In this document: one piece after another, positions 62,934 to 64,000 of the stretch
Numbering within the stretch: the stretch's first letter is position 1
Layout of the letters: each line of letters begins with the position of its first letter
Assembly: GCF_030384885.1 (NCBI RefSeq)
Contig: NZ_CP128613.1
Strand: one strand, 5' to 3'
From: Escherichia coli
GTDB taxonomy: Bacteria > Pseudomonadota > Gammaproteobacteria > Enterobacterales > Enterobacteriaceae
DNA length: 64,000 nucleotides
The notes under the pieces: model-generated
What the model was told of the DNA's origin: nothing
Seen by the model: only the letters and a program-made list of their open reading frames with translations
Databases searched by the model: none
Translations under genes and position numbers: made by a program

Positions 62934-64000
62934 TTACTGCTTCAGAGTAGCAAATGCCTGAATGATGGCATCGATTTGCTCACGAGTGTGGGCAGCGTTT
63001 ACGCTACAGCGCAGCAGCGTGATGCCTGCAGGCGCGGCAGGTGGCAGGATAAGATTCACATAAACGCCCAGCGAAATAAGCTCGCGCCAGATGCGTAAAC
63101 CTTCCTCTTTCGAACCGATTATCACTGGCACTACCGGGCTAATATGTGAACTTAACTCGTAACCCAGTTTTTGCAGACCGTCATACAGATGGTTGGCGTT
63201 ATCCATCAGCTTTTGCCGCAACTCTGGTTGTGAGGCAATGGTTCTTAACGACGAGCGCACGGTCGCAATGCAGGACGGAGAAGGAGAGGCGGTAAAAATA
63301 TACGGGCGGCTGCCGTAGCGCAGCACTTCCATCGCTTCCGAACCGACAGCAAAACCGCCAATCGAGGCCAGACTTTTACTGAAAGTACCAACGATAATAT
63401 CCACATCATCTTCAACGCCAACGGCTTCAGCCAGTCCGCGCCCCGTTGCGCCTAACACGCCAAACGAATGCGCTTCATCGACAATCAAATAACCACCGAG
63501 ACGACGTTTGATATCAACAATTTCCGCCAGCGGCGCAATGTCACCGAGCATACTGTAGATGCCTTCAACGATGATAATCGCCTCTTTTGCCCGTTCACCG
63601 AGGCGAACCATGCGCCGTTCCAGATCTTTAGCATCGTTATGGCGGAAACGAATAATTTCCGCTCCACCGAGAGAACAGGCGTCATAAATACTGGCGTGGC
63701 TGTCGGCATCCAGTAACACTACGGCGTTATGGTCGGCAAGTGCGCTGATGACACCTAAATTAGCGGTATAACCGGTTGAAAAAACGATAGCGGTAGGGCG
63801 ATTGAAAAACTCGGCAATTTCTTTCTCTAACGCCAGATGTGGCGCATAGCTGCCATTAGCCATACGAGAACCGGTAGTGCCGGTGCCTTGGGCCGCTAAC
63901 GCTGCCTGACCTTCGGCGATGGCATCATGATTGAAGGTTAAACCGAGATAATTATTGGTCCCGGCCAGGATCACGTTTTTATCGCCGATCCGGCCTTCGG
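62934..64000 (-). CDS. PLP-dependent alpha-oxoamine synthase (BioF/Kbl/serine palmitoyltransferase family); N-terminus lies beyond the window end
   Basis: Motifs GTNNYLGL, DEAHS and the lysine motif TFSKSL. The frame is open from 63974 to the window end (the track start is an internal GTG). Confidence 0.8.
   Translation of the reverse strand, partial: EGRIGDKNVILAGTNNYLGLTFNHDAIAEGQAALAAQGTGTTGSRMANGSYAPHLALEKEIAEFFNRPTAIVFSTGYTANLGVISALADHNAVVLLDADSHASIYDACSLGGAEIIRFRHNDAKDLERRMVRLGERAKEAIIIVEGIYSMLGDIAPLAEIVDIKRRLGGYLIVDEAHSFGVLGATGRGLAEAVGVEDDVDIIVGTFSKSLASIGGFAVGSEAMEVLRYGSRPYIFTASPSPSCIATVRSSLRTIASQPELRQKLMDNANHLYDGLQKLGYELSSHISPVVPVIIGSKEEGLRIWRELISLGVYVNLILPPAAPAGITLLRCSVNAAHTREQIDAIIQAFATLKQ

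Follow-up and report, generated by a model that had tools for sequence, protein, structure and literature searches.

The window analyzed here, a stretch of 64,000 nucleotides of Escherichia coli DNA, ends inside a gene for a PLP-dependent enzyme, spt, that lies tail to tail with a pair of LptFG-like permease genes. The initial annotation had described this gene as truncated at the window edge, and indeed its first 36 codons fall outside. Megablast of window positions 60700-64000 gave strain 2013C-4282 (NZ_CP027579.1) as the closest genome, matching over the full length at a listed 100.0% with one base differing, and from this near-identical sequence the complete gene of 390 codons could be read together with its upstream neighbors acpR, an SDR gene, aasR, and yghO. 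The features of the locus are as follows.

55564..56256, minus strand: yghT, P-loop kinase-like paralogue, 230 aa, divergent from yghS
56430..57143, plus strand: yghS, P-loop kinase-like paralogue, 237 aa
57174..57932, plus strand: yghR, P-loop kinase-like paralogue, 252 aa
57978..59327, plus strand: yghQ, MOP-superfamily flippase-like membrane protein, 449 aa (weak NF007773 match)
59327..60151, plus strand: unnamed protein of 274 aa, helical and CHAD-like in fold; its first codon shares 1 base with the yghQ stop
60160..60723, plus strand: YtfJ-family protein, 187 aa (TIGR01626 at 212 bits)
60753..61823, plus strand: lptF2, LptF paralogue, 356 aa, intact (TIGR04407 at 323.4 bits, cut-off 230)
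61820..62899, plus strand: lptG2, LptG paralogue, 359 aa (TIGR04408 at 307.7 bits, cut-off 240)
62897..62931, no strand assigned: GC-rich 16-bp hairpin straddling the gap between the convergent spt and lptG2 stop codons
62934..64000, minus strand: spt, serine palmitoyltransferase; codons 37-390 and the stop lie inside the window
past the window edge, minus strand: acpR, acyl carrier protein, 82 aa, overlapping the spt start by one base
past the window edge, minus strand: epi/cerR, SDR/epimerase-family reductase, 304 aa
past the window edge, minus strand: aasR, fatty acyl-AMP ligase/acyl-ACP synthetase, 569 aa (NF006624 at 873 bits)
past the window edge, divergent from the aasR operon: yghO, N-acyltransferase (bCerS), 380 aa

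The minus-strand frame of spt is open throughout from the window edge to its TAA stop at 62934-62936; translation of 62934..63998 gives 354 codons with zero stops and begins EGRIGDKNVILAGTNNYLGL. The initial annotation had read the product as a PLP enzyme of the BioF/Kbl/serine palmitoyltransferase (SPT) type on the strength of three motifs, and all three are found, GTNNYLGL at Spt residues 49-56, DEAHS at 210-214, and TFSKSL at 241-246. The fits to family models are far above chance, with Pfam PF00155 (Aminotran_1_2) covering residues 44-385 (E 1e-51). The proposed convergence with the LptFG-like pair is equally clear from the two gene ends, at 62899 on the plus strand for lptG2 and at 62934 on the minus strand for spt. 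The RNA fold of the hairpin between them has a predicted energy of -27.7 kcal/mol (z -4.8), and none of 200 shuffled sequences was equally stable; a simple terminator scan of the gap picked out the shorter inner part of the hairpin only, at chance level. The hairpin is likely to serve as a bidirectional terminator common to both genes.

The placement of Spt within its enzyme class rests on curated-model cut-offs, the ranking of solved structures, and published assays. Among the NCBI curated set, the only family model whose cut-off Spt clears is the serine palmitoyltransferase equivalog NF047599 (599.9 bits against a cut-off of 500, E 1.7e-180), whereas it stays below the cut-offs of the models for BioF (TIGR00858, 334.8 bits against 426), Kbl (NF005394, 298.8 bits against 460), CqsA-type enzymes (NF005526, 224.1 bits against 428), and 5-aminolevulinate synthase (TIGR01821, 219.6 bits against 338.6). 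In the ranking of solved structures, the Sphingomonas SPTs come out on top at 371 to 378 bits, the enzyme of S. paucimobilis being the best at 378, and lower-ranking solved relatives include cysteate acyltransferase (202 bits), the E. coli paralogues Kbl (1FC4, 190 bits) and BioF (1BS0, 177 bits), and CqsA (126 bits).

The catalytic residues point the same way. Spt K244 aligns with the Schiff-base lysine K265 of S. paucimobilis SPT (2JG2), and H137, D210, H213, and R366 align with its H159, D231, H234, and R390; all five are invariant across 82 of 82 Spt relatives. The S. paucimobilis enzyme (PDB 2JG2, 2W8J) is 47% identical to Spt along its entire length, with matching catalytic residues, and both are of the soluble bacterial type that lacks membrane subunits. 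They differ at S. paucimobilis Arg378, where Spt carries Leu354. Altered chemistry was considered for this substitution and rejected, as the residue is hydrophobic in all 80 non-sphingomonad relatives, Caulobacter included; Arg378 is thus a peculiarity of sphingomonads, and Leu354 is no defect in Spt.

When these results are set beside published enzymology, the gene is found to have been characterized already. Spt is identical to ECD_02854 of E. coli BL21(DE3) at 383 of 390 positions (98%), the seven differences being conservative substitutions, and in BL21(DE3) this block occupies the corresponding chromosomal site, between pitB/yghT and glcC, with the SPT, AcpR, and AasR genes (ECD_02854, ECD_02853, and ECD_02851) in the same operon order. 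Its acyl carrier protein ECD_02853 has the identical accession to AcpR of the matching genome. Padilla-Gomez et al. (2022, PMC9386255) found that ECD_02854 converts L-[14C]serine to 3-oxo-sphinganine, with a strong preference for palmitoyl-AcpR over palmitoyl-CoA or acyl-AcpP; in contrast, acyl-CoA is the usual assay substrate for the Sphingomonas enzyme. The same study showed that ECD_02853 carries 4'-phosphopantetheine, that E. coli AasR, AcpR, and SPT together give 3-oxo-sphinganine in vivo, and assigned ECD_02852 and yghO (ECD_02850) to the reduction and N-acylation towards dihydroceramide. In extracts of BL21 with empty vector, 3-oxo-sphinganine was not detectable (PMC9386255), and the native locus may therefore be silent in laboratory culture. 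Our literature search returned no report of sphingolipid from unmodified E. coli. The window gene is accordingly the E. coli serine palmitoyltransferase of the alpha/beta/gamma-proteobacterial ("Rhodobacteria") type, a published enzyme from a published locus, and the suggestion of a sphingolipid- or aminolipid-type role made in the initial annotation is borne out by the curated model, the solved relatives, the assays on the 98%-identical BL21 protein, and the ceramide genes that adjoin spt.

Those adjoining genes form a compact unit. In NZ_CP027579.1, spt is the last gene of a four-gene minus-strand operon, aasR-epi-acpR-spt, in which stop and start codons overlap at two junctions. A sigma-70 promoter scan of the aasR-yghO intergenic region upstream of aasR gave nothing convincing, with matches at chance level only, and a promoter scan of the spt-proximal region likewise gave no more matches than chance. 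Together, aasR, epi, acpR, spt, and yghO make up the set of five ceramide genes described in Caulobacter. The Caulobacter crescentus locus (CC_1152-CC_1168 / CCNA_01212-01226) holds the same five genes (aasR, epi/cerR, acpR, spt, and aca/bcerS), and both loci have an LptF2/LptG2 pair and a flippase-like gene, while neither has lptB. They differ in that E. coli Spt is 55% identical to its Caulobacter counterpart and LptF2/LptG2 only about 24%, and no LptC2 was seen in the E. coli locus.

Conservation of this arrangement was followed in a scan of one genome per species, which yielded 80 spt loci that were probed by tblastn with thirteen E. coli proteins. Eighteen of the 80 loci come from Enterobacterales, with 74-98% Spt identity, and include Pseudocitrobacter, Hafnia, Serratia, Shimwellia, Erwinia, Mangrovibacter, Citrobacter youngae, Pluralibacter, Cedecea, Rosenbergiella, and Tatumella. 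Identity is about 60% in Nitrospira, Methylotenera, Geobacteraceae, and many gammaproteobacterial metagenome-assembled genomes. In nearly all of the 80 loci, acpR lies directly upstream of spt and aasR two genes upstream, and aasR-epi-acpR-spt and yghO co-occur at almost every locus where the contig extends far enough. All 13 genes of the block are retained in 13 of the 14 enterobacterial species with full flanks.

The LptF2/LptG2 pair of the block is lipid-transporter-like. The genes lptF2 and lptG2 share 4 bases at the stop of the first and the start of the second, and LptF2 and LptG2 are each 28% identical to K-12 LptF and LptG. They match the LPS extractor LptB2FG (LptF b4261, LptG b4262) in family models, length, and paired arrangement, but adjoin spt and lack the pepA/holC linkage, and an ATPase gene (lptB) is absent from the E. 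coli sphingolipid block. K-12 lives without lptF2 and lptG2, which are therefore non-essential. Where the flanks are complete, 13 of 14 enterobacterial and 18 of 28 other loci have LptF2/LptG2 homologues no more than 10 kb away from spt, and the spt-adjacent LptF homologues of non-enterobacterial genomes, Caulobacter excepted, score 137-205 bits to LptF2 versus 70-133 bits to K-12 LptF.

In Caulobacter, LptC2, LptF2, LptG2, and a flippase have been described within the sphingolipid region (Olea-Ozuna et al. 2024, PMC11324152), and LptF2/LptG2-type paralogues have been implicated in sphingolipid export, with LptF2 and LptG2 forming a complex that also binds the housekeeping LptB and is needed once sphingolipids are produced (preprint 10.64898/2026.04.12.717747). 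Figure 2B of the same preprint draws the sphingolipid operons of E. coli UTI89. The link between Spt and lipid-transporter-like genes that the initial annotation drew from position alone is thus upheld by the synteny of spt with lptF2/lptG2 and by the Caulobacter paralogues implicated in export. With identity of only about 24% between the E. coli and Caulobacter proteins, we infer an export role for LptF2/LptG2 in E. coli from Caulobacter genetics, LptB pull-downs, and synteny.

Annotation of the pair deserves a separate remark. LptF2 and LptG2 clear the "equivalog" cut-offs of their models, and RefSeq therefore names them LPS exporter LptF/LptG, a systematic over-annotation; the essential lptFG sits elsewhere. 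NZ_CP027579.1 is one base shorter over window positions 60700-64000, and its lptF2 (4369605-4370674) is flagged as frameshifted by RefSeq; either the window stems from a different assembly or that record carries a one-base error. That the window lptF2 might be a pseudogene was considered and rejected, as it is collinear with BL21 and has no indel against it.

The remaining plus-strand genes continue the block away from spt. From yghS through yghR, yghQ, the 274-aa gene, and the YtfJ-family gene to lptF2 and lptG2 they form one run with some overlapping junctions, and an alignment of YghR, YghS, and YghT shows the motifs GxDGxGKST, DRYPQ, and RKPDH in common. A Pfam search on YghO, the 274-aa protein, and YghS returned nothing useful, and PADLOC on six neighbors of spt returned nothing meaningful. 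The CHAD fold of the 274-aa protein is known for polyphosphate binding. Conserved uncharacterized neighbors, together with yghQ, are found alongside spt in Enterobacterales, Rhodocyclaceae, Methylotenera, Luteibacter, and Dyella; Luteibacter and Dyella have yghQ and the CHAD-fold gene directly after spt. A YghQ-like flippase is present in 9 of 28 non-enterobacterial full-flank loci, and either a flippase or LptF2/LptG2 in 25 of 28. The yghR gene lies near spt in several distant lineages and yghT is also syntenic with it, whereas the YtfJ-family gene adjoins spt in Enterobacterales only. In a Rhodocyclaceae metagenome-assembled genome, the YghR homologue (13166-14008) contains an in-frame stop, reflecting either a pseudogene or an assembly error.

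Caulobacter head-group genes include a ceramide kinase of the LCB5/DAG-kinase type; the E. coli block differs in carrying three thymidylate-kinase-like proteins along with one protein of the CHAD fold and one that is YtfJ-like. The assignment of YghR, YghS, and YghT as the known bacterial ceramide kinase was rejected on these grounds, as CpgB is of the LCB5/DAG-kinase type and YghS has a thymidylate-kinase fold. The spt neighbors could together form a distinct head-group module. It may tentatively be speculated that natural E. coli and many Enterobacterales make an undescribed, probably phosphorylated cell-surface sphingolipid, with YghR/S/T, the CHAD-fold protein, YghQ, the YtfJ-like protein, and LptF2/LptG2 acting in head-group attachment or export, although we regard this as possible rather than probable. 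Such a head-group and export module would differ from that of Caulobacter, and the lipid would have escaped notice owing to the deletion in K-12 and to a locus that stays quiet when strains are cultured in the laboratory.

The locus is widespread within the species. The segment at window positions 60700-64000 was found by megablast in 4145 of 5426 complete E. coli genomes (76%), with 4087 genomes retaining at least 80% of the queried segment, mostly at 95-99% identity, and 1281 lacking it. The window allele itself is uncommon, with only 15 of the 4145 genomes matching at 99% or more and most at 95-99%. In K-12 MG1655 (3129043-3132408; window position 59043 onward), IS5 (insH9) occupies the space from yghO to yghQ, where it replaces about 8.4 kb with eight genes; K-12 YghQ is a 355-aa stump of the 449-aa protein, and K-12 YghO lacks its first nine residues. 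K-12 therefore lost the sphingolipid locus through an IS5-associated deletion, and the pathway was correctly described in the initial annotation as one not found in K-12: spt is missing there, with IS5 in its place. The yghO gene left in K-12 is annotated as a "putative DNA-binding transcriptional regulator," and is actually a gene for a ceramide-synthase-type acyltransferase with its 5' end replaced at IS5.

Substitution patterns indicate that spt is under strong purifying selection, with dN/dS of 0.07 in the comparison with BL21, 0.03 with a further E. coli allele, and 0.06-0.08 with four additional enterobacterial genera; such low values argue against a decaying remnant. Against one E. coli strain, 94 of 1170 nucleotides differ with only 9 amino acid changes (dS 0.37), an unusual level of silent divergence that points to long-separated alleles or to recombination in this region. 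Recent horizontal transfer was considered and left no sign in base composition, the GC content of the block (48-54%) being ordinary for E. coli.

Two further differences from BL21(DE3) were observed elsewhere in the window. Between ftsP and ygiQ lies a two-gene islet (26632-28992, plus strand). One gene encodes a protein of 474 aa whose N-terminal region is hydrophobic, the other an ankyrin-repeat protein, and the C-terminal regions of the two products resemble each other; BL21(DE3) lacks both genes and has ftsP next to ygiQ. The mqsR/mqsA toxin-antitoxin pair, located between ygiS and ygiV in BL21(DE3), is missing in the window-matching strain (at about 20010-20120 of the window).

Taken together, the evidence makes it very probable that Spt is a soluble, PLP-dependent SPT fed by acyl-AcpR within a locus proposed to serve ceramide synthesis and LptF2/LptG2 export. 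In published assays with BL21 proteins that are 98-100% identical, AasR adenylates free fatty acid and loads it onto holo-AcpR. Spt would then condense L-serine with acyl-AcpR to give 3-oxo-sphinganine and CO2, again going by assays of the 98%-identical BL21 protein. By comparison with Caulobacter and from synteny, N-acylation by YghO (bCerS) and reduction by the SDR (epi/CerR) would lead to dihydroceramide, the order of these steps being debated. Caulobacter genetics and conserved synteny suggest that the YghQ flippase may move the lipid outward and that LptF2/LptG2 may extract the finished lipid from the inner membrane and pass it to the outer one, with the housekeeping LptB probably supplying the power.

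The alternatives turn on what Spt condenses and on whether the locus is used at all. The alpha-oxoamine synthase family is chemically versatile, it includes cysteate acyltransferase and CqsA among the solved relatives of Spt, and the literature searched does not report a native E. coli product; it is therefore conceivable that Spt joins glycine, alanine, or cysteate to acyl-ACP and makes a non-sphingolipid aminolipid, a sulfonolipid-like base, or a CAI-1-type signal. We give this only a slim chance, as both relatives score far under the SPTs (202 and 126 bits) and the CqsA model stays well below its cut-off, the BL21 enzyme puts L-serine into 3-oxo-sphinganine (PMC9386255), and the neighbors of spt are exactly the ceramide set. 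The initial annotation had raised the further prospect that the gene might group with housekeeping BioF or Kbl in a genome lacking another copy. Spt does share the fold-type I PLP alpha-oxoamine synthase chemistry and motifs of both enzymes and 33% identity with E. coli BioF, but BioF and Kbl use other amino acid and acyl substrates and belong to other operons, and Spt falls under both curated cut-offs. Their genes are near-universal, with bioF in 5424 and kbl (kbl-tdh) in 5423 of 5426 complete E. coli genomes, separately from and regardless of spt, which occurs in 76%. With both present elsewhere in nearly all genomes, spt is a third paralogue and no replacement. K-12 grows without spt, and spt shares its operon with acpR and aasR and with no bio or tdh genes, so that a redundant or back-up copy serving biotin synthesis or threonine catabolism is effectively refuted.

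A competent enzyme could also reside in a cryptic locus that is physiologically unused and in the course of being lost, as happened in K-12 through the IS5-associated deletion. The 1281 genomes without the locus, the inactive empty-vector extracts of BL21 (PMC9386255), and the one public genome with a frameshifted lptF2 are what such a remnant would leave. Set against them are dN/dS values of 0.03-0.08 within E. coli and towards other Enterobacterales, the 13-gene block found whole in all but one of the 14 full-flank enterobacterial species, the 4087 genomes that keep at least 80% of the segment, and the intact lptF2 of the window, which leave this reading a slightly slimmer chance than that of a different substrate pair.

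The reading of spt as an acyl-AcpR-fed SPT in a ceramide and export locus adds no new kind of system, as enzyme assays for the first step have been published and drawings of the locus already exist in the literature. In practical terms, annotation pipelines label lptF2 and lptG2 as the LPS transporter genes "LptF" and "LptG," and BL21, a common expression host, carries a sphingolipid pathway. E. coli is the textbook example of a bacterium with glycerophospholipids and LPS only. About three quarters of sequenced E. coli strains nevertheless have an intact sphingolipid locus that is under purifying selection, and it is the K-12 reference that lost it.
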